64,000 nt of DNA, taken from sequence record MN648445. One strand, given 5' to 3'. Positions 22,434 to 54,848 of the stretch are shown here, piece after piece. Under the pieces are notes generated by a model, which saw only the letters and a list, made by a program, of their open reading frames with translations, made no database searches and was not told the DNA's origin. Each line of letters starts with the position of its first letter. The stretch's first letter is position 1. Origin of the DNA: Escherichia phage FP43. A program made the position numbers and the translations under genes.

Positions 22434-23396
22434 ATGATTACTATCAATTCCAAAGAGCACATTCTAGAACAGAAATATCGTCCTTCTTCCATTGACGAAT
22501 GTATTCTGCCTGCGTATGACCATGAAACATTCAAGTCTTTAGTATCTAAAGGAAAACTTCCTCATATTATTTTACACTCTCCATCTCCTGGTACCGGTAA
22601 AACAACCGTGGCAAAAGCATTATGTAATGATATCAATGCCGAAATGATGTTCGTCAACGGTTCTGATTGTAAGATTGATTTTGTGCGTGGTCCGTTAACT
22701 GCATTCGCTCGTTCAGTCTCAATGGAAGGCAAGCCTAAAGTTATTGTTATTGATGAATTTGACCGTAGTGGCCTCGCCGAATCACAACGTCACCTTCGTA
22801 CATTCATGGAAGAATTCTCTAGTAACTGCTCTATTATTATCACTGCTAACAATATTGATGGAATTATTGAACCATTACGTAGCCGTTGTCGAGTTATCGA
22901 ATTCGGACGTCCGACTGAAGAAGATAAAATCTCGATGATGAAGAAAATGATTCATCGTATGGTTGAAATCTGTAAGAACGAAAATATCGAAATCGCTGAT
23001 ATGAAAGTTGTTGCAGCTCTGGTTAAAAAGAATTTCCCGGACTTTCGTCGTACAATTGGCCAATTAGACCAGTACTCGTCTAAAGGTGTTCTTGATGCAG
23101 GTATTCTGTCTATCGTAACTAATGACCGTGGCACAGTCTCTGATGTTATCGAAGCAATGAAGAACAAAGATATCAAACAACTTCGTGCATTAGCTCCAAA
23201 ATATGCTGCAGATTATTCATGGTTCATCGATAAATTAGTTTCAGAATGTTATGACCAAGTTGCACCTGGTAAAAGTATTATTTCGCTTTACGAAATTGCA
23301 GGCGAAAATAATAAGTTTCATGGACTAGCAAGTAATATTGAATTACATGTTATGTATATGCTTCTTCAACTGACCTGCGAACTGACTTGGAAATAA
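22434..23396 (+). CDS. 44: clamp loader large subunit gp44
   Basis: [17 protein letters not shown]...[10 protein letters not shown] (Walker A), DEFDR; matches T4 gp44. Confidence 0.95.
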
Positions 23397-23397
23397 T

Positions 23398-23961
23398 ATG
23401 AACTTATTCGATGATGACGTCCAGCTTAACGAGCACCAAATTGCATGGAAGTCTAATGACGCTGATGCGATTCAAAAATGTGCTGATATGTTTAAAGAAA
23501 AACCTGAGAATGAATTCTTTAAAATCATTAATGCTATTAATGAAAAGAAATCTATGTCAATTGCTCAGGTCGACTACTCAAAATTTATGGTTGAGAACTC
23601 ATTATCCCAGTTCCCAGAATGTATGCCAGCCGTTTACATGATGAACTTAGTCGGTTCTGAATTAAGTGATGAAGCGCACTTCAACTATATGATGGCGGCA
23701 ATTCCGCGTGGTCGTCGATTCTCTAAATGGGCTAAACTAGTCGAAGACACTTCAGAGTTACTAGTTATCAAACTGTTGATGAAACATTACACAATCAACA
23801 TGAATGATGCTACCGAGTATAAGCGGCTCCTTGAAAAAAATAACAAGTTGCCAATAGTCCTTAAAGAACTGAAGGCCATGGTCACTGATGAATTTCTCAA
23901 AGAAGTTACTAAAAACGTAAAAGAACAAAAACAATTTAAAAAATTAGCATTGGAATGGTAA
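23398..23961 (+). CDS. 62: clamp loader small subunit gp62
   Basis: 187 aa, same length as T4 gp62; syntenic, TAATATG junction. Confidence 0.9.
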
Positions 23962-23963
23962 AA

Positions 23964-24332
23964 ATGATTGAAATTAAATTGAAGAACCCTGAAGATTTTC
24001 TGAAAGTCAAAGAGACTTTGACCCGTATGGGCATCGCTAATAACAAGGATAAAGTCCTTTACCAGTCTTGTCATATCCTCCAAAAGCAAGGTAAATATTA
24101 CATCGTCCACTTTAAAGAAATGCTGCGTATGGACGGACGTCAGGTTGATATTGATGGTGAAGACTATCAGCGACGTGATTCGATTGCTCAGTTGCTTGAA
24201 GACTGGGGATTAATTGTTATTGAAGACTCTGCTCGTGAAGATCTGTTTGGCCTGACTAATAACTTCCGTGTTATCTCTTTTAAACAGAAAGATGACTGGA
24301 CTTTGAAAGCAAAATATACAATTGGTAATTAA
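23964..24332 (+). CDS. regA: translational repressor RegA
   Basis: MIEIKLKNPEDFLKVKETLTRMGIANNKDKVLYQSCHILQK matches remembered T4 RegA. Confidence 0.9.
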   Translation: MIEIKLKNPEDFLKVKETLTRMGIANNKDKVLYQSCHILQKQGKYYIVHFKEMLRMDGRQVDIDGEDYQRRDSIAQLLEDWGLIVIEDSAREDLFGLTNNFRVISFKQKDDWTLKAKYTIGN

Positions 24333-27165: not shown

Positions 27166-27801
27166 ATGAAAACTACACCAATCACTATCGCTATTGACGC
27201 AATCGTAAAACAAGCTTCATCTCTTGCCACTATGGCTAAAGTAATTAGTCAAAACTCTGCCCGATATAATGCTATTCTTGAAACTCTTCGTCGCCCTGGA
27301 CTGAGTAATTATGAAAGCCGAGTAATTATTACAGGTGTTGGTAAGAACGCTAATATCGCAACTAAAGCTTCCGAGACTTTTGCTTCACTAGGTATTCCTA
27401 GCATGTATTTGAACACCGGGCATTATTCTCATGGCGACGCAGGATTTATTGCACCTAATGATGTATTAGTTCACATCAGTCGTTCTGGTAAGACTGAAGA
27501 AATGATAGGTGTTGCTAAACATCTTCGTATGATTCGTCCTCAGGTTAAACAGATTCTGTTACATTGTAACCCTGACATTCCGCAAGAATACGAAGCTCTT
27601 TTTGATTATACGTTCTGTACAGGCATCGCGGTAGAGGTTGATGAGAATTCTCTGGCTCCGACCATGTCCACTACATTGTTGTTAGCGCTTATCGATACGT
27701 TTGCTATCAACCTTTCGTCTGAACGTGGATTTACCTCTAATGACTTCCTTAAGTTCCACCCTGGTGGTGCACTAGGTGCCATGTTACGAGGCGAACAATG
27801 A
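27166..27801 (+). CDS. SIS-domain sugar-phosphate isomerase (arabinose-5-phosphate isomerase-like)
   Basis: 211 aa; ITGVGKNANIATK and SRSGKTEE SIS motifs; C-terminal FHPGGALGAML typical of KdsD/GutQ-type isomerases. Confidence 0.6.
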   Translation: MKTTPITIAIDAIVKQASSLATMAKVISQNSARYNAILETLRRPGLSNYESRVIITGVGKNANIATKASETFASLGIPSMYLNTGHYSHGDAGFIAPNDVLVHISRSGKTEEMIGVAKHLRMIRPQVKQILLHCNPDIPQEYEALFDYTFCTGIAVEVDENSLAPTMSTTLLLALIDTFAINLSSERGFTSNDFLKFHPGGALGAMLRGEQ

Positions 27802-27982: not shown

Positions 27983-29668
27983 ATGAAAAAAGCTGTTATT
28001 CTTGGTGCTGGACTGGCAACTCGTTTGTATCCAATAACGCACCATATTCCTAAGGTGCTTGTTAACTATAAACAAGACACTATTCTGAGCAATTTGTATA
28101 CAATTTATTCTGACCTTGGCGCAGATGAAATTATTGTAGTAGTTCATTCAAAATTTGCTGAAACTGTTCGAGCTTATTGCGAGCAAGAAGGGTTCAATGT
28201 GACTATTCGTACAGTTGATGAAGCGTATGGTTCTGCTTATGCTCTTGCTAAATTATACAAAGATTTAGATGGCCATAACGTAATTGTTAACTGGTGTGAT
28301 ATTATTCCTGACTTTGGTTCATGGTCTTGGAATGTTAACGCAATCTATGTTAAGGGTGATGAATGTCGATATAATTTCGATGGTGAAAATATCACTAACG
28401 TAGGTTCAACAGGTGGTAATGTTGTAGGAATTTATCAGTTCAAAGACTGGGAATTCTACATGGGTTCTACTGATGAGGAAATTCACGAATACTGCAAAGG
28501 TCGTGATTTCGTAGAATTCCTTTACGGCAGTGCATTCAATAAATCAGAGCTTATGAATCTAATTGATTTAGGTGATATGCCTAAACTTGAAAAGGCTCAT
28601 GAAGTTCGTGAACTGAATCGTAGTTTTAATGCAGTTGAAATTGGCGAAGAAACTGTAACTAAATTCGCGTTAACCGAACAAGGTCGAGCTCTTCAAAAAG
28701 ATGAGATTTCATGGTATTTGAAAGTGAAATCAGATTCAGTTCCTCAGTTAGTTTCGGTAAATGAAAATAATTTTGAAATGGAACGTATTAAAGGTAAGCC
28801 GGCATTTGAATATATTAAATCCAAATCAAGTCTTGCTCGTCCACAAATTGTTGATGCAATTTTAGATGCACTGAAATTCAGCACGGACACTTATTTTGTA
28901 AGTCCTGAAACTGTTCGCCGTGATTTCACTAAAGAGTTCTATACGAAAGTTATTGATCGTTGTGAAAGCATTCAGCCATTGATTGATTCATTTGGTAAAA
29001 TCACACATGTGAACTACACTAAGATTGGACGTCTGAAGCCAATGTTGAAACAAGCTTTAGAACATCTTATTCGTTATCATAACCGTTCTCAGGGACAGTA
29101 CTCTGTTATTCATGGTGACCCGAACTTCAGTAATACTATGATTACCGATAACGGCGAAGTCAAGTTTATCGACCCTCGTGGATATTTTGGTGAAACCAAG
29201 ATTTACGGGCCAAAATTGTATGATGAAGCTAAAGTGCTTTATGCTGTTTCAGGTTATGATGAATTCAATGCTAATCCGACCTGGGGTCAGTTTACTATTG
29301 ATGAAACAACTTGTAATGTGACTATTAACATCAATCCATTAGTTTACAAATATGGAAAGATGAGTTCGTTTAACGAGTATCATCATTTGGCAGTAGCAAT
29401 TATCTGGATTGCATTAGGTGGTTATTTCAAGAATAATCCACTTAAAGCGGTTGCCGCATATTATAAAGGTATGGAACTTCTGACTAAGCAATTACGTAAC
29501 ATGGGCCGTGTACTTCAAGACGGCTCTATTAGTTATGACGTAGCAGAACCTGTAACGGCTACTCTGATTACAAAAAATCCTGGTAAATGGGTACTAACTG
29601 ATAAAGAAACTGGTGTTTCCTATCGTCCAATCGGCGGCGATATCACTCATCAATGGGAACGAATCTAA
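27983..29668 (+). CDS. bifunctional sugar-1-phosphate nucleotidyltransferase / sugar kinase (fusion)
   Basis: N-term MKKAVILGAGLATRLYPITHHIPKVLV (G-x-G-T-R-L nucleotidyltransferase signature); C-term HGDPNFSNTMI...IDPRG (APH/choline-kinase-like catalytic motifs). Confidence 0.6.
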   Translation: MKKAVILGAGLATRLYPITHHIPKVLVNYKQDTILSNLYTIYSDLGADEIIVVVHSKFAETVRAYCEQEGFNVTIRTVDEAYGSAYALAKLYKDLDGHNVIVNWCDIIPDFGSWSWNVNAIYVKGDECRYNFDGENITNVGSTGGNVVGIYQFKDWEFYMGSTDEEIHEYCKGRDFVEFLYGSAFNKSELMNLIDLGDMPKLEKAHEVRELNRSFNAVEIGEETVTKFALTEQGRALQKDEISWYLKVKSDSVPQLVSVNENNFEMERIKGKPAFEYIKSKSSLARPQIVDAILDALKFSTDTYFVSPETVRRDFTKEFYTKVIDRCESIQPLIDSFGKITHVNYTKIGRLKPMLKQALEHLIRYHNRSQGQYSVIHGDPNFSNTMITDNGEVKFIDPRGYFGETKIYGPKLYDEAKVLYAVSGYDEFNANPTWGQFTIDETTCNVTININPLVYKYGKMSSFNEYHHLAVAIIWIALGGYFKNNPLKAVAAYYKGMELLTKQLRNMGRVLQDGSISYDVAEPVTATLITKNPGKWVLTDKETGVSYRPIGGDITHQWERI

Positions 29669-30054
29669 TGCACCGTGTAGAAAACATGCTTAATCTTTGT
29701 TTTGATGTCGATGATTGTATAACAGAGTGGAATAACAATCGTGATTACGTGAACTTCAAACCAGACGTCGAAATGGTGTCTGCCATTAATGCCCTGTATG
29801 ATGCAGGGCATACCATAACGCTTTACACTGCCCGTGGTATGAAGTCGGTAGGTCCTGGTCGTATAGCAATTGACATTCTCCCAAGTCTGATTCAGAACTT
29901 GGAAAACATTGGTTTGAAGTACCATAATTTGCTAACACATAAACCAGTATATGATTGGATTATCGACGACAAAGCTATGCGTCCTGACGAATTCAAAGCT
30001 CTTATGAATAAAGGCGAATTCGAAACATTTAAATCATATAAACCAAATCTATAA
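29668..30054 (+). CDS. HAD-superfamily phosphatase
   Basis: FDVDDCIT motif I (DxDx[TV]); TAATG overlap with upstream kinase gene. Confidence 0.5.
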   Translation: MHRVENMLNLCFDVDDCITEWNNNRDYVNFKPDVEMVSAINALYDAGHTITLYTARGMKSVGPGRIAIDILPSLIQNLENIGLKYHNLLTHKPVYDWIIDDKAMRPDEFKALMNKGEFETFKSYKPNL

Positions 30055-30100: not shown

Positions 30101-31273
30101 ATGCAAAAAAAAATGAATACTTTTAAAATCGGAACGAATTTTGATTTAGCTCTTCTTGATAAAATCGTAGAGCTCAATAAAACCTATCCTAATAGCTTGA
30201 TAAACGAAGTATATGGCTCTACAAGAGAAATGGCTTTTGTAGCAGCCAGACCTGATTTTAGGCTTCCTGACGTTGACAAAAAGATGTTAGAAGATTACGT
30301 TAAACGTTGTAACGAATTAGGTATTTGCTTTAACTATACACTCAACACGATAAATCCTGGTTCAAAAAGAGAACTAGTTGAGTGGAAGAAGAAAGCTATT
30401 CAGGATTATGTTCAGTATCTTTGGTCAATAGGCGTATGGCGTATTACTATCGCTAACCCTGTTGTTATGGAAATTGTTCGTGAAGTCAATAAAGATATTG
30501 AGATTGAAGTTTCAACAATTCTACATGTTGATGCTGTAACTCAAATCAAATACTTGCATGACCAATATAACATCAAAAAGGTCTGTTGCGGAATTCATAA
30601 GAACCGTTCAGTTTCTTTCCTGAAGCGTGCAGCAGAGTTTTGCAATAAGAACAATATAATATTTGAAGTTCTTGTAAATGAGTTCTGTTCTAATGCTGGT
30701 AAAGGGTATACAACACATTGTAGCTATCGTGACTCTTGCTATATTTTCCATAGTACTGATGTTACCGCTGATGATGCTAAATCCTTAAATGGATATCCTA
30801 TGCAGCACTGTATTAAAGCTCGTGATACAGACCCATTTAACTGGTTGAGAACTCGTTTTGTTCGTCCTCAAGATTTGAAACTTTATAATGATATTGGTAT
30901 CACTCAATTTAAAGTTTCAGGACGTACAGGTAGCACAGACTACATTTTGAAAGTTCTTGAAGCATACGCTTCTGAAAAGTTTGAAGGTAATTTGTTAGAA
31001 CTGTGGAAGCCTTTAGAGACTATTTTCACTCTTGAAAATGAGACTGAGTTTTCACATACAGTAAATATTGAAACCTCTTTGTTAGATGGCTTTTTAGAAA
31101 AAAGGTGGTTCAGACATCCAGATTTTGATTGTGCTAATGAAATCTGTGGGTCAACGTGTACATATTGTGAAAGGTATTATAAACGTCAATTATCTAAAAA
31201 CGGGTTAGCAGAAAACTCCATATCTATTATTGATATAACTAACTCTGATGACGCTTTGAGGTACCCGGAATGA
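30101..31273 (+). CDS. Cys-rich TIM-barrel-like protein (tentatively peptidase-U32-like; C-terminal C-x4-C-x3-C-x2-C cluster), possible Fe-S enzyme
   Basis: 390 aa; alternating beta/alpha pattern; CANEICGSTCTYC near C-terminus; alternative start at 30113. Confidence 0.5.
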   Translation: MQKKMNTFKIGTNFDLALLDKIVELNKTYPNSLINEVYGSTREMAFVAARPDFRLPDVDKKMLEDYVKRCNELGICFNYTLNTINPGSKRELVEWKKKAIQDYVQYLWSIGVWRITIANPVVMEIVREVNKDIEIEVSTILHVDAVTQIKYLHDQYNIKKVCCGIHKNRSVSFLKRAAEFCNKNNIIFEVLVNEFCSNAGKGYTTHCSYRDSCYIFHSTDVTADDAKSLNGYPMQHCIKARDTDPFNWLRTRFVRPQDLKLYNDIGITQFKVSGRTGSTDYILKVLEAYASEKFEGNLLELWKPLETIFTLENETEFSHTVNIETSLLDGFLEKRWFRHPDFDCANEICGSTCTYCERYYKRQLSKNGLAENSISIIDITNSDDALRYPE

Positions 31274-31568: not shown

Positions 31569-32267
31569 ATGAAATATATCAAAGCCGCAGATTTTCAAGC
31601 CGCATTTAAAGCAGTCAATCGTGAAATTTTAGAAAACCCCGAATTCGTAACTGATTCTCGTATTGGACGTTGTAATGAAATCGGGTCCATGACAGTAGTT
31701 GTTGACAATCCATCATCATTCAAAATGACCGACCCACGTATTAACCGCATCTCTTATGAATATGCCGAAGACTTCTGGAAGTTTATGATTTCTGGTGGTA
31801 CTGATGCAGAAGAAGCGTTTAAGGCATATCCTAATGTCGCTAAATTCATTTCTAAACCAAAATCAGATGCTTTGCCTGCGAACTTCAACACTTTCTACGG
31901 TCCTCGCATTGTGGCCCAATTACCAGCTCTTCTAAAAGAACTTAAAGAGAAACCTAACTCTCGAAGAGTTGTGTTCCAAATTCTAGAAAGTTCTGATCAG
32001 GCTTTGCTTGATTCAGACGAAACACTTGAATATCCATGTACTGACTCAGTGACTTATTATATTCGTGATGGTAAGCTTTATACCCACTGCCATATGCGTT
32101 CTCAGAACTGTGCTGTTGTTATGCAGTTGGATTTTTATCTCCAAGGAAAATTACTTCATTATATCGCTAACGAATGTGGTGTAGAAGTTGGTGATTATAC
32201 TCATACCATGGTAAGTGCCCATGTGTTTGAACGTGATTTTGATTATGTTAAAGGATTCCTTGACTAA
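31569..32267 (+). CDS. 42: dCMP hydroxymethylase-like (thymidylate-synthase fold), gene 42
   Basis: 232 aa; PNSRRVVFQI and CTDSVTYYIRDGKLY...MRSQN align with remembered T4 gp42 active-site region; syntenic. Confidence 0.75.
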   Translation: MKYIKAADFQAAFKAVNREILENPEFVTDSRIGRCNEIGSMTVVVDNPSSFKMTDPRINRISYEYAEDFWKFMISGGTDAEEAFKAYPNVAKFISKPKSDALPANFNTFYGPRIVAQLPALLKELKEKPNSRRVVFQILESSDQALLDSDETLEYPCTDSVTYYIRDGKLYTHCHMRSQNCAVVMQLDFYLQGKLLHYIANECGVEVGDYTHTMVSAHVFERDFDYVKGFLD

Positions 32268-33166
32268 TGGCTATTTTCCGCGTACCAATCTTAAGTATGC
32301 GGTCTTATGAAACTGGACAGTATGCTATCCTTAAGGATGGCAACTTCCAACTTCATTTGCACCGTGCTAATCCAGGTGATGTGATTACATATCCACGTAA
32401 TGCATCTGATATTAAAGAATGTGAACGTCTTTTCCCGGAATTTAAGTTTGTTCCATTATGGTATAAAGATAACGCGTATAACACTCGTAAATATTTCTGG
32501 TCTGAAAATGAATTTGTGGTTGATTCATTAATTGCTTATTATGATTGTGATTTTCTAATAACAGATATCACTGGATATGACGGCGCTTTTGATGTAGAAT
32601 TCAATTTCAATATCACGGCAGACCCTAATAAACCACGTTTTTATATTGACGAATTCTTAAAAACCGATATGTTGTCAGTTAATCGTTCACTTCAAACTAC
32701 TGTGTTGAATGAACGTCAAAAAGAAGTGCTGGTTAACGCCGGTGCAGATGTTAATAAGATTATCGTAACGCAGAAAGTTATACGTCCTTCCATCATGCAG
32801 CGTCTTGTAGGTGATTTGGCTCCTATTCATCTAGATGGTATTTTTCATCCATTTCGAATTAGTGACCCATGTTATCGTTTTGAACAAGTGGTTGAATGTG
32901 CAATTCAATTAGGACAACCGCTTTATATAACCGATCCAAATAATAGCTTTGACAGAAATAAGTATCCTGAAGAAGCGCTGATTCGAATTTTTAAACCAAC
33001 TAAAACTGAGTACTATCAAATTCTTAAAGGACGTCCGAAAATTCAATATTTCGAAAATCCTGAAGAAGTATTCCATCCAGGTCTTGGTGAGTTCATCTAC
33101 TTTAATGCTTTAATTTCTTCACCGTATAATATACCTAAATACGAAGATGTCGTAATCGAGGAATAA
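32267..33166 (+). CDS. hypothetical protein occupying the T4 beta-glucosyltransferase position
   Basis: 299 aa; TAATG overlap with gene 42; no motif recognised. Confidence 0.5.
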   Translation: MAIFRVPILSMRSYETGQYAILKDGNFQLHLHRANPGDVITYPRNASDIKECERLFPEFKFVPLWYKDNAYNTRKYFWSENEFVVDSLIAYYDCDFLITDITGYDGAFDVEFNFNITADPNKPRFYIDEFLKTDMLSVNRSLQTTVLNERQKEVLVNAGADVNKIIVTQKVIRPSIMQRLVGDLAPIHLDGIFHPFRISDPCYRFEQVVECAIQLGQPLYITDPNNSFDRNKYPEEALIRIFKPTKTEYYQILKGRPKIQYFENPEEVFHPGLGEFIYFNALISSPYNIPKYEDVVIEE

Positions 33167-33167
33167 A

Positions 33168-33716
33168 ATGGCTAAAATTATTTTAGTAGACGGCCCGGAT
33201 AATGCCGGTAAAACAACTTTCATTAATGACATAATGGAAATTAGTGAAAGATATGTGAAGATTGATTTCCCTAAACGAACAGTTGATGGACGTTTCGATG
33301 TTAAGTCTCGAAATGAAGTTGGCTGTTTCGAAACGATGTTGAATTATTTAGACCCTACTAAGATTTATCTGTTAGACCGTGGATATATTAGTAACTGGGT
33401 TTATGGACGTATTCGACAAGATGCGGACTCGGTTCTTGACGTTTATGAACAGGACTATGTTCGTCTTTGCCAAAACCATGATGTGTTCACAATTATTTTA
33501 ACACGTAACGAAATGACTGAAAGTTTTGAAGACGACCTTATTACTTTGTCTTCATTCGGTTTTAATACAGTCATTTCACATTTTGAAGAGTTTGCAATTC
33601 ATAACAAAATCCAAACGTATCAATTACTTAATCATGATGGTGCTAACAAAGTTATAGGATTTAATGCAAGCGAACGTAATGGTTTGATTACAGAAATCAT
33701 CAAATGGGCTCGTTAA
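33168..33716 (+). CDS. P-loop nucleotide/nucleoside kinase (thymidylate-kinase-like)
   Basis: Walker A GPDNAGKTT; LLDRGYISNWVYG resembles the TMPK DR[YH] motif. Confidence 0.5.
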   Translation: MAKIILVDGPDNAGKTTFINDIMEISERYVKIDFPKRTVDGRFDVKSRNEVGCFETMLNYLDPTKIYLLDRGYISNWVYGRIRQDADSVLDVYEQDYVRLCQNHDVFTIILTRNEMTESFEDDLITLSSFGFNTVISHFEEFAIHNKIQTYQLLNHDGANKVIGFNASERNGLITEIIKWAR

Positions 33717-33815
33717 GAGCCTATTTAAAGTTTTAAATGCTGTATAACCCTTAGTATATAATCGTTTTATCTTTTAAACATGAGTAAAATATAATGATGC
33801 CTATGGAAAAATACA

Positions 33816-53747: not shown

Positions 53748-54848
53748 ATGAAAGTTATGTTTATCCCATCTCGCGCAGTCCCATTTAACCCAGAACGTGT
53801 ACAAGGTGGTCTTGAAGCAGTACATTTAAATGTATTGAAATATCTTGTGTCCATCGGTGCTGATATTGATTATATCGGCTTTGATAATGACACGTTTGGT
53901 GACTGGAAGGTTAATCATCATCCTGTTGGTCATCTGACTAAATTCAGTCTAGGTATGAGTTATACTATGGCTCGTAAGATTGTTGAACTAGCCGGCATCC
54001 ATGAATACGATTTTGTTGTTACTATGGAACCGACCAAACTAACCGTTCAGGCAATTAAAGACGCAGGTCTCTCTAAAGTTCATAAGAATTTTATGGCAAC
54101 ACCATTTGAACCGGTATCTCGTGGCATTGTTCAAATTTGGGACCAGACTATTCAAATTCATAAGAACGGTGGTAAGAGTTATGCTCCTACTAAAGCCTTC
54201 CGTGAATTTGAACGCAAATATTGTTATATGACTTCAGGTCTGACTGACAAAATTGATTATGATTATTGGCGAGCAAATCCGTTGTTTGAAGCCGAAGATT
54301 ATCCGGTTATTTGTTTGAATGAGAAACCTGAAGTTCTTCCGGCGACTGATCTGATTATTAGTGCACAACGTTATGACACTAAAATGCGTCGTACTGATGT
54401 TGCTCTTGAAGCGATTAAAGCACTAGGCGAAAATGGTGCAGGATACTGTCCTAGTAAATGGGCACCACCAGCTAAATATCCTGTTATTATTGATGCTCCA
54501 CACAGTGAAATCATGGAACGTCTTAAAACAGCTAAAGCACTTATCAATACGTGTCCTGACACGGGTACGGTAGAGAATAGTTCTATTGAAGCCATCTCTA
54601 AAGGTGTCCCTGTGATTCAGTTAGTTTTTAAGGATTATCCGCACGCGACATTCGAATATGACCCAGATACTGTGCGTGTAGAAATTGATTCCTCTACTCC
54701 TAAGAAAGAAGTAGTTGCGCTTTACACAAAAGCTGTATTAGAATTCACTGACACATACGAAGCTCGAGTTAAACGTGCTGAAGCAGTATGGAAGAAGTAT
54801 AACCGAGATGCAGTTGTTGCGATGTGGGATAAAATCTTCACAGCGTAA
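53748..54848 (+). CDS. putative GT-B fold glycosyltransferase (candidate DNA hmC glycosyltransferase)
   Basis: 366 aa; N-terminal MKVMFIP...GGLE and C-terminal TGTVENSSIEAISKGVPVI resemble GT-B donor-binding region; lies between 39 and rIIA. Confidence 0.5.
   Translation: MKVMFIPSRAVPFNPERVQGGLEAVHLNVLKYLVSIGADIDYIGFDNDTFGDWKVNHHPVGHLTKFSLGMSYTMARKIVELAGIHEYDFVVTMEPTKLTVQAIKDAGLSKVHKNFMATPFEPVSRGIVQIWDQTIQIHKNGGKSYAPTKAFREFERKYCYMTSGLTDKIDYDYWRANPLFEAEDYPVICLNEKPEVLPATDLIISAQRYDTKMRRTDVALEAIKALGENGAGYCPSKWAPPAKYPVIIDAPHSEIMERLKTAKALINTCPDTGTVENSSIEAISKGVPVIQLVFKDYPHATFEYDPDTVRVEIDSSTPKKEVVALYTKAVLEFTDTYEARVKRAEAVWKKYNRDAVVAMWDKIFTA

Follow-up and report, generated by a model that had tools for sequence, protein, structure and literature searches.

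Gene content and layout of the locus

We analyzed positions 31569-33716 of a 64,000-nucleotide stretch of DNA from Escherichia phage FP43 (record MN648445; this whole stretch is referred to as the window). Three consecutive open reading frames (ORFs) at this locus encode a thymidylate synthase (TS) homologue, a 299-aa protein and a 182-aa P-loop kinase, which probably act together in the formation of arabinosyl-5-hydroxycytosine in phage DNA. More than 150 genomes of Escherichia and Shigella phages, among them Bas46 (ChristianSchoenbein) and RB69, match this 2.1-kb segment at 98-99% identity, and the source genome is that of a Mosigvirus, an RB69-like T-even phage (RB69/Bas46/HY126-like). The gene order in the window is TS homologue, 299-aa gene, 182-aa gene and uvsX, by comparison to 43-imm.1-imm-42-b-gt-segA-uvsX-40-41 in T4. 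The pair of genes downstream of the TS homologue sits between the gene 42 counterpart and uvsX, as does the b-gt region in T4, and a preliminary description made from the sequence alone had rightly placed it in the beta-gt slot.

All features reported here are on the plus strand. The gene of the TS homologue (31569-32267) is the orthologue of RB69 gp48 and encodes a putative 5-hydroxy-dCMP synthase according to Pfam and PDB matches and a diagnostic Asn. It is followed by the 299-aa gene (32267-33166, ATG start), orthologous to RB69 ORF046c plus ORF047c or "arabinosyltransferase 1", which encodes a predicted GT-B glycosyltransferase that is an orphan at the sequence level, and by the 182-aa gene (33168-33716, ATG start), orthologous to RB69 ORF045c, which encodes a P-loop kinase of the thymidylate kinase fold. 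The two latter ORFs have exactly the coordinates given in the preliminary description, which had also proposed TAATG coupling at both junctions. Read directly from the sequence, the junction between the TS homologue and the 299-aa gene is a true TAATG stop/start overlap (32265-32269), but from the 299-aa gene to the 182-aa gene the sequence reads TAA-A-ATG (33164-33170), a tight junction that has a 1-nt spacer, with GAGGAA just upstream. The 299-aa gene differs from that of Bas46 at 16 nucleotide positions, 14 of them third codon positions, resulting in 2 amino-acid changes. Both ORFs are genuine conserved genes under purifying selection.

In a scan for promoters and terminators, sites were no more numerous than in shuffled sequence, so that the operon boundaries are based on gene spacing only. 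A 5-bp GC-rich hairpin (GGCTC-GTTAA-GAGCC, 33707-33721) overlaps the stop codon of the kinase gene and is followed by TATTTAAAGTTTT; it was below the criteria of the terminator scan and was not called. Elements resembling TATATAAT are present upstream of both the TS homologue and uvsX.

The TS homologue is a putative 5-hydroxy-dCMP synthase

The 232-aa TS homologue matches Pfam Thymidylat_synt (E 1e-15) and is near-identical to the enzyme of phage HY126 (PDB 9iqu/9iqc/9ir2, E 5e-156). Its identity to T4 gp42 is 26%, and its motif MRSQN, in the place of MRSND of T4 gp42, has an Asn at the position corresponding to D169 of Escherichia coli ThyA. A dCMP hydroxymethylase has Asp at this position and is closely similar to gp42, neither of which is true of the TS homologue. 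According to Lee et al. (NAR July 2026; bioRxiv June 2025; PMC13326640), Asn at the ThyA D169 position is the diagnostic residue of 5-hydroxy-dCMP synthases. The same work reported for RB69 gp48 the formation of 5-hydroxy-dC in vivo, the incorporation of 18O from O2 and the binding of flavin, and it described RB69 DNA as carrying beta-D-Araf-(1-3)-alpha-D-Araf (Araf, arabinofuranose) on 5-hydroxycytosine via an ether linkage that lacks a methylene bridge (PMC13326640). As judged by sequence, the product of 31569-32267 is a flavin/O2-dependent 5-hydroxy-dCMP synthase and not a dCMP hydroxymethylase.

The preliminary description had named this gene "gene 42" and interpreted its neighbors in terms of hydroxymethyl-dCMP (hm-dCMP). 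Given the 26% identity to gp42, the Asn at the ThyA D169 position and the near-identity to the HY126 enzyme, this name fails. Because the TS homologue has the signature of the synthases, and because its RB69 orthologue makes 5-hydroxy-dCMP, the hydroxymethylase frame has to be abandoned, and a chemistry of hydroxymethylcytosine (hmC) and glucose was not borne out either, as the sugar is D-arabinofuranose on 5-hydroxycytosine. In annotations, "gene 42" of Mosigvirus-type phages should thus read cytosine hydroxylase. More than 150 GenBank records carry the outdated annotation of the TS homologue as dCMP hydroxymethylase or gene 42.

A gene for a Flavodoxin_2 protein, of the FMN-dependent NAD(P)H oxidoreductase type, is present in the corresponding cluster of large metagenomic phage contigs (L002, 605-1123; L004, 6715-7275; L005, 1-523). 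In L004 it immediately precedes the TS homologue, in L002 and L005 it is 5-6 kb upstream, and the Mosigvirus cluster in the window contains no Flavodoxin_2 gene. Where it is clustered, the Flavodoxin_2 protein could provide the hydroxylase with reduced flavin.

The 299-aa protein is predicted to adopt a GT-B fold

The 299-aa protein shares 99% identity with RB69 ORF047c plus ORF046c. In the RB69 reference (AY303349.1, 24600-25497), the gene is divided between ORF046c and ORF047c, and tblastn covers it only in two pieces. The split has been attributed to a sequencing error (PMC13326640). In the window and in all other Mosigvirus genomes the transferase is a single 299-aa ORF, which supports this published view.

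Sequence-level searches placed the protein nowhere. It had no match in Pfam or NCBIfam, and its PHROG match was to an unnamed group only. Among 36 members of its family, down to 36% identity, none matched any glycosyltransferase (GT) model of Pfam at E <= 1; this includes Glycos_transf_1 and Glyco_trans_4, so that the family falls outside CAZy GT4-type/PF00534. Comparisons to PDB sequences gave nothing relevant with either the single sequence or the family profile, BLASTP detected no similarity to T4 alpha- or beta-GT (E 0.26 to 3.7), and hhalign detected no profile similarity between the family and the ORF003c-type transferase of the window (E 0.25). Since every sequence-level search was empty, the protein is placed by structure comparison alone.

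An AlphaFold2 model based on 36 homologues was confident, with a pLDDT of 94.3 and a pTM of 0.89. Compared to known structures, the model scored 16.9 with BshA, 16.3 with HepE, 15.7 with PimA, 14.4 with the HY126 glycosyltransferase (9iqz) and 13.2 with T4 alpha-GT. A Foldseek search of the model returned MshA (3c4q) at a TMq of 0.61-0.63, and the best E-values were those of UDP-GlcNAc 2-epimerases (E 1e-6), which are UDP-sugar proteins with a GT-B fold. As is characteristic of the GT-B superfamily, the model has two Rossmann-like alpha/beta domains and an active site in the cleft. These comparisons point to a small retaining-type (GT4-like) GT-B glycosyltransferase, for which glycosyl transfer itself is a prediction. 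The absence of a recognizable motif, as noted in the preliminary description, thus holds true at the level of Pfam and NCBIfam, but not at the level of structure. Consequently, a "hypothetical protein" encoded after the TS homologue can be annotated as a glycosyltransferase that sequence models have missed.

With a profile of the transferase family, 223 relatives were identified among 1.84 billion representative proteins. Residues retained over 127 distant homologues are, in the N-terminal half, S10-M11-R12, Y19, D24-G25-N26, P43, Y66 and R74, besides Q151, and, in the C-terminal half, P195-F196-R197, D200, Y203, T222-D223-P224-N225, H270 and E275. The S10-M11-R12-S13 loop of the N-terminal (acceptor) domain (32294-32305) is invariant in the 36 homologues, and S10, M11 and R12 are retained in 87%, 75% and 89%, respectively, of the distant ones. 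The motif P195-F196-R197-I-S-D200, with which the C-terminal (donor) domain begins (32849-32866), is likewise invariant, with P195 in 98%, F196 in 82%, R197 in 97% and D200 in 94% of the distant homologues. H270-P-G-L-G-E275 (33074-33091; H270 in 91%, E275 in 87%) is found where GT4/GT5 enzymes carry E-x-(F/C)-G-L...E/Q and may be the counterpart of their donor-site motif, and R197, by analogy with GT-B enzymes, may be a ligand of the UDP diphosphate. All members of the close family have K246. The conserved C-terminal set would be located where GT-B enzymes bind the NDP-sugar.

The transferase family is acidic, with a median isoelectric point (pI) of 5.1, compared to 9.05 for T4 beta-GT and 6.1 for T4 alpha-GT. 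Surface charge was considered as an argument against DNA binding and dropped as weak, given that T4 alpha-GT is also acidic.

The 182-aa protein is a divergent member of the thymidylate kinase fold

The 182-aa protein is 100% identical to the products of Mosigvirus genes annotated as "thymidylate kinase" and belongs to PHROG 761 of the same name. The window protein had no match to PF02223 at E <= 0.1; 13 of 22 relatives matched Pfam Thymidylate_kin, all of them below the PF02223 cut-off of 27 bits, and the TIGR00041 score was 16.3 bits against a cut-off of 83. The protein has the fold of a thymidylate kinase (TMK) and a P-loop of the form GxxxxGK(S/T). It does not belong with the T4 gp1 dNMP kinase (1dek/1del) by sequence or structure.

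Both motifs that had been pointed out in the preliminary description, the Walker A sequence GPDNAGKTT and a DRG/Y-like motif, are present, at residues 9-17 and 68-76 (LLDRGYISN), and their key residues are invariant in 22 homologues. Within the Walker A/P-loop (33192-33218) these are G9, D11, N12, G14, K15 and T16; within D70-R71-G72-Y73 (33375-33386), the presumed counterpart of the TMK DR(Y/H/F) motif, the close family shows no variation at D70 and R71. Invariance in this family extends over GPDNAGKT, F34-P35-K36, R42, R48-N49-E50, F54-E55-T56, D70-R71, S75-N76 and R113, and the LID region contains an invariant acidic segment, F120-x-D122-D123-L-I. In very distant relatives and in those fused to other domains, only G..GK, R71, S75 and V78 persist; in the fusion proteins, the Asp of the kinase motif is replaced by Thr, and the Arg is retained everywhere.

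Two other roles were considered for the 182-aa protein and rejected. A DNA base kinase similar to 5-HMUDK does not agree with the final base, which keeps its 5-oxygen as an ether and has no phosphate-derived substituent. A sugar kinase is out because the bifunctional AfhE-type enzyme covers that step and because the protein has an NMP-kinase fold.

Transferase and kinase genes are distributed and linked as a pair

Homologues were found in phages in 348 records for the transferase and 343 for the kinase, with the same split among taxa. There were 176 of each in Escherichia phages, 57 of each in Acinetobacter phages, 26 transferases and 25 kinases in Klebsiella phages, and 15, 9, 7 and 6 of each in Shigella, Enterobacter, Proteus and Yersinia phages, respectively. 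In five Serratia records without a kinase match, the kinase may merely have diverged; in Serratia phage WSPA, a gene that overlaps next to the transferase gene is annotated as thymidylate kinase.

A kinase homologue was adjacent to, overlapping, fused with or at most 7 kb from a transferase homologue in 13 of 13 loci (the window, L001, L002/L003, L004-L009, L012, L016, L017 and L018), which include metagenomic phage contigs of 216-356 kb and one phage with a PolIII-alpha replicase. The gene order varies between TS-GT-kinase and TS-kinase-GT. In the window the D169N-type TS homologue lies next to the transferase, an arrangement also present in Thanatos, in WSPA and in metagenomic phages. The Thanatos genes follow one another as TS (TH1_062), transferase (TH1_063, 47.5% identity), kinase (TH1_064, 44%) and U32 (TH1_065). 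In Dhakavirus/Marfa-type phages, a kinase gene is located about 0.7-2 kb from the transferase gene (NC_048798.1, Marfa, 23718-24203; KT176190.1, QL01, 23388-23873), and identity is 37-41% for the kinase versus 67-69% for the transferase, which suggests that the kinase was replaced or relocated within the cluster.

Three proteins of 519-551 aa (P0253, P0254 and P0263) are natural fusions of a transferase domain with a C-terminal TMK-like domain. This C-terminal domain matches Pfam Thymidylate_kin (E 1e-4, profile positions 1-163 of 185) and aligns over 153 columns with the family of the kinase in hhalign (E 5e-4), including the P-loop and the motif (D/T)R-x-(F/Y)-I-S-x-x-V-Y. One transferase-kinase fusion gene lies in a cluster with SIS, NTP-transferase and U32 genes on the T4-like contig L012, which alone provides gene context, as the other two of the three contigs are short. 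A scan of viral contigs with P0253 gave no match.

In other relatives (P0166, P0176, P0178, P0196, P0225 and P0248; L009, 8001-9629; L008, 8001-9656), the transferase is preceded by a fused HAD-type phosphatase domain at the N terminus, some 185 residues long (DxDG ... GDDxYD). The HAD-transferase fusion gene of L009 is positioned between the genes of a TMK-like kinase and a SIS isomerase. The fused HAD domain had no detectable homology to the HAD phosphatase encoded in the window.

Further pathway genes in the window

Upstream of the TS homologue, the window encodes a phosphosugar (arabinose-5-phosphate) isomerase (27166-27801), syntenic with the "putative phosphosugar isomerase" of Bas46 and corresponding to RB69 gp55 (PMC13326640). 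Next are an AfhE-type bifunctional nucleotidyltransferase/kinase that makes UDP-arabinofuranose (UDP-Araf; 27983-29668; Pfam NTP_transferase and a kinase-like C terminus; PMC13326640) and an AfhF-type phosphatase of the HAD type (29653-30054; PHROG 1238; PMC13326640). For the orthologues of these three enzymes, the synthesis of UDP-Araf has been reported (PMC13326640).

At 53748-54848, the window encodes a 366-aa protein that is 99.5% identical to RB69 ORF003c and matches the glycosyltransferase structure of phage HY126 (PDB 9iqz, and 9ir0 with UDP; E 3e-249). Transferases of the ORF003c type were found in 211 phage records only, with one copy in Mosigvirus and two in Acinetobacter phages, and Klebsiella, Serratia, Yersinia, Proteus and Shewanella phages keep the transferase-kinase pair without an ORF003c-type transferase. 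Thanatos DNA is mono-arabinosylated, and Thanatos has a single transferase; DLP3 DNA is triply arabinosylated (PMC13326640). Bas46 and Bas47 have double arabinosylation. The distribution of ORF003c-type transferases fits DNA bearing one, two or three arabinoses, and the ORF003c-type protein is an accessory, probably second, arabinosyltransferase. Such transferases have been assigned to the second and third sugars; DLP3 gp76 and gp77 were active only together, and the third DLP3 arabinose was added on DNA (PMC13326640).

Between the phosphatase gene and the TS homologue lies a gene for a U32-family protein (30101-31273; Pfam Peptidase_U32, E 7e-11), the counterpart of RB69 gp50. U32 proteins include RlhA, which acts in the formation of 5-hydroxycytidine in 23S rRNA, TrhP, which acts in that of 5-hydroxyuridine in tRNA, and UbiU/V, all of them O2-independent hydroxylases. 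In NCBIfam, the phage U32 protein gave only a weak match to UbiU. A U32 gene travels with the transferase-kinase pair on other contigs (L007, 8462-9598; L012, 10053-11153; L016, 4153-5262). On L016, an unrelated phage contig encoding PolIII-alpha, a 49%-identical U32 copy is right behind the pair, with no TS homologue in the 11 kb that were read. Because these U32 members are O2-independent hydroxylases, the phage protein could by analogy provide an anaerobic route to 5-hydroxycytosine that complements the O2/flavin-dependent TS homologue. RB69 gp50 has been called a "sugar or heterocycle reductase", in a text that does not mention U32, RlhA or TrhP (PMC13326640).

A proposed pathway and its alternatives

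We consider it probable that the genes at 31569-33716 constitute the nucleotide-to-DNA core of the arabinosyl-5-hydroxycytosine pathway, consisting of a hydroxylase, a modified-dNMP kinase and the first transferase. The TS homologue would hydroxylate dCMP to 5-hydroxy-dCMP (5hodCMP), as was shown for its RB69 and HY126 orthologues. The 182-aa kinase would then convert 5hodCMP to 5hodCDP and thereby allow entry into the dNTP pool and polymerization; it would do so beside the gp1-type dNMP kinase in T4-like phages and possibly as the sole such kinase in other lineages carrying the module. As suggested by fold, synteny and phyletic pattern, the 299-aa protein would take alpha-D-arabinofuranose from phage-made UDP-Araf and attach it, as the first and base-proximal sugar, to the 5-hydroxyl group of 5-hydroxycytosine, most likely on replicated DNA by analogy with T4. 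The ORF003c-type transferase encoded at 53748-54848 would add the second arabinose.

The assignment of the first arabinose to the 299-aa protein is based on its being the sole transferase-fold protein common to all phages with arabinosyl-5-hydroxycytosine and on its match to retaining enzymes; a retaining-type fold fits the alpha linkage of this sugar. The preliminary description had suggested a second transferase, and the protein indeed appears to be of the transferase type, but the phyletic pattern marks it as the universal, base-proximal one rather than the second. When the hydroxylase alone was expressed in E. coli, 5-hydroxy-dC (5hodC) was present in DNA in traces seen only by extracted-ion chromatogram, and co-expression with the gp1-type dNMP kinase gp159 resulted in a clear 5hodC peak (PMC13326640). 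Since the hydroxylase alone thus gives trace 5hodC, and since the module is also present in phages that are not T4-like, we favor a modified mononucleotide as the substrate of the 182-aa kinase. Phosphorylation of a modified dNMP, as proposed in the preliminary description, is still the most economical reading of this protein, with 5hodCMP in the place of hm-dCMP. The proposed roles of both proteins are also favored by the retention of catalytic-type residues throughout the superfamily.

Both gene roles were already known as predictions, since Table 1 of Lee et al. lists "arabinosyltransferase 1" and "nucleotide kinase" (PMC13326640). Added here are the separation, by phyletic pattern, of a universal transferase-kinase core from the accessory ORF003c-type transferases, the transferase-kinase and HAD-transferase fusions, and the set of residues conserved in a transferase family unseen by sequence models. 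The transferase and the kinase are the least understood steps of a pathway whose product, arabinosyl-5-hydroxycytosine, shields a large group of T4-like phages, including candidates for therapy, from restriction enzymes, CRISPR-Cas and defenses directed against glucosyl-hmC.

Several observations weigh against the proposed pathway. The 299-aa protein has no E-x7-E motif, carrying H-P-G-x-x-E, and has no sequence link to any GT family. The kinase has Asn12 at the position of the P-loop Arg of class I TMKs, and it lacks an Arg-rich LID, with R113 as the sole Arg of this region, followed by the acidic FxDD. When DLP3 gp76, gp77 and gp79, the last of which is the homologue of the 299-aa protein, were supplied singly with UDP-Araf or UDP-arabinopyranose (UDP-Arap), there was no arabinosylation of DNA containing 5-hydroxycytosine (PMC13326640, data not shown), and Lee et al. 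cannot tell whether the acceptor of the first sugar is the mononucleotide or DNA (PMC13326640). For Thanatos TH1_063, a report describes the synthesis of UDP-xylose out of UTP and xylose-1-phosphate, with dC-containing DNA, dCMP and dCTP left unmodified (PMC12838424). Finally, the gp1-type kinase of RB69, gp159, phosphorylates 5hodCMP in vitro (PMC13326640), and the TMK-like kinase may therefore have another substrate.

Some of these points would be accommodated if the first sugar were attached before replication, which we regard as a serious but rather unlikely alternative. The 299-aa protein would then arabinosylate a free nucleotide (5hodCMP or the corresponding di- or triphosphate), the kinase would be dedicated to the bulky arabinosyl-5hodCMP, which neither gp1 nor host kinases would accept, the polymerase would use a glycosylated dNTP, and only the second and third sugars would be added on DNA. 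Hydroxylase, transferase and kinase genes are translationally coupled, their linkage survives rearrangement across very different phages, and the transferase and kinase also occur as natural fusions. In vitro, the homologue gp79 had no activity on 5-hydroxycytosine DNA, and Lee et al. left open the site of the first arabinosylation (PMC13326640); with RB69 gp159 accepting 5hodCMP, the second kinase has no obvious unique substrate. The fusions lose some of their force because the module also joins non-consecutive steps, as in the HAD phosphatase-transferase proteins, so that a fusion indicates a shared pathway rather than consecutive reactions. The low pI of the transferase family (5.1 against 9.05 for T4 beta-GT) also favors a free nucleotide, but is weak as an argument given the pI of 6.1 of T4 alpha-GT. 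To our knowledge, all characterized phage DNA sugar modifications are post-replicative, as exemplified by T4 alpha- and beta-GT. The third DLP3 arabinose is likewise added on DNA (PMC13326640). Besides the T4 precedent, attachment before replication is at odds with the ready entry of 5hodC into plasmid DNA in the presence of the hydroxylase and a gp1-type kinase, which indicates that a T4-like route works (PMC13326640). TH1_063 was inert on dCMP and dCTP, although these acceptors have no 5-OH and the donor was UDP-xylose (PMC12838424). A mononucleotide-level assembly line of hydroxylase, transferase and kinase, in which the TMK-like enzyme would be a glycosylated-dNMP kinase or an ATP-dependent partner in the transfer, is a similarly tentative proposal. 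If true, it would provide the first natural glycosylated dNTP used as a replication substrate, and it would explain both the inactivity of the first transferase on 5-hydroxycytosine DNA in vitro and the presence of a second kinase that always travels with the transferase and is sometimes fused to it.

It is improbable that the 182-aa protein serves mainly as an obligatory subunit of the transferase, nucleotide-binding and possibly ATP-dependent, without which the first arabinosylation would not proceed. Universal co-occurrence and adjacency would agree with such a role, as would the kinase-like domains of the fusion proteins, in which classically catalytic residues are altered (GK-D for GK-S/T and T-R for D-R). 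The transferase homologue showed no activity in assays that lacked the kinase, and DLP3 gp76 and gp77 are a precedent for two-protein dependence in this pathway (PMC13326640). However, the window protein and its close family keep the P-loop Lys and Thr, D70, R71 and R113 without exception, as an active kinase would, and the Dhakavirus/Marfa-type kinases, encoded 0.7-2 kb away and at 37-41% identity compared to 67-69% for the transferase, are unlike a subunit of a tightly co-evolving heterodimer. We consider it highly improbable that the 299-aa protein belongs to the donor pathway as a UDP-pentose-forming or UDP-sugar-converting enzyme (a pyrophosphorylase, or a phosphorylase-like or 2-epimerase-like GT-B protein). 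Such an enzyme would account for the formation of UDP-xylose from UTP and xylose-1-phosphate by the 47.5%-identical Thanatos homologue in vitro (PMC12838424) and for the UDP-GlcNAc 2-epimerases as best Foldseek matches (E 1e-6), which have the GT-B fold in common with the model. Yet the route to UDP-arabinose is fully covered by the isomerase and the AfhE-type and AfhF-type enzymes, and Thanatos-type phages, as well as others without an ORF003c homologue, would be left without any transferase. The TH1_063 result may be better explained by a retaining GT-B enzyme with a UDP-pentose site, for which the reverse reaction with contaminating UDP could yield UDP-xylose. There is hardly any likelihood that the original hmC frame applies, in which the kinase would act on hm-dCMP, redundantly with gene 1, and the 299-aa protein would be a second, glucosyl-type transferase acting on hmC. 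The position in the beta-gt slot, the older annotation of the neighbor as dCMP hydroxymethylase and a 2018 description of RB69 DNA as containing arabinosyl-hmC (PMC6024577) speak for it; they are outweighed by the 5hodCMP synthase signature of a neighbor near-identical to the structurally solved HY126 hydroxylase and by the ether-bonded arabinose, free of a methylene bridge, on the 5-hydroxycytosine of RB69 DNA (PMC13326640).

Comparison with known systems

The closest known counterparts of the pair are RB69 gp46:47 or DLP3 gp79 for the transferase, which is one intact ORF in the window but split in the RB69 record, and RB69 gp45 or DLP3 gp78 for the kinase, which appears only in Table 1 of PMC13326640, where the roles are predictions. 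By comparison to the proposed core transferase, the RB69 ORF003c/HY126 glycosyltransferase (9iqz, 9ir0) has an accessory distribution and is without sequence or profile similarity to it (hhalign E 0.25).

The T4 beta- and alpha-GTs, of 351 and 400 aa, are longer than the 299-aa protein and share no sequence similarity with it; homology to T4 b-gt was not found. The T4 enzymes act on a hydroxymethyl group, whereas the predicted acceptor of the window transferase is a 5-hydroxyl and its sugar D-arabinofuranose; the window transferase is also more acidic than T4 beta-GT. Retaining GT4-type GT-B enzymes (sucrose-phosphate synthase, 6kih; BshA, 6n1x; MshA, 3c4q; PimA, 2gej) are 7-12% identical to the 299-aa protein, which is about 70-100 residues shorter and lacks E-x7-E.

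For the kinase, T4 gp1 is a functional parallel as a phage kinase acting on C5-modified dCMP, and its RB69 orthologue gp159 takes 5hodCMP (PMC13326640); the gp1 homologue is encoded outside the 64-kb window. With respect to thymidylate kinase (PF02223/TIGR00041), the window kinase scores below the family thresholds, has Asn in the place of the class I Arg and has no Arg-rich LID. By contrast, its family is characterized by an invariant F-x-D-D-L-I and is always linked to the base-modification module, not to dTTP synthesis.

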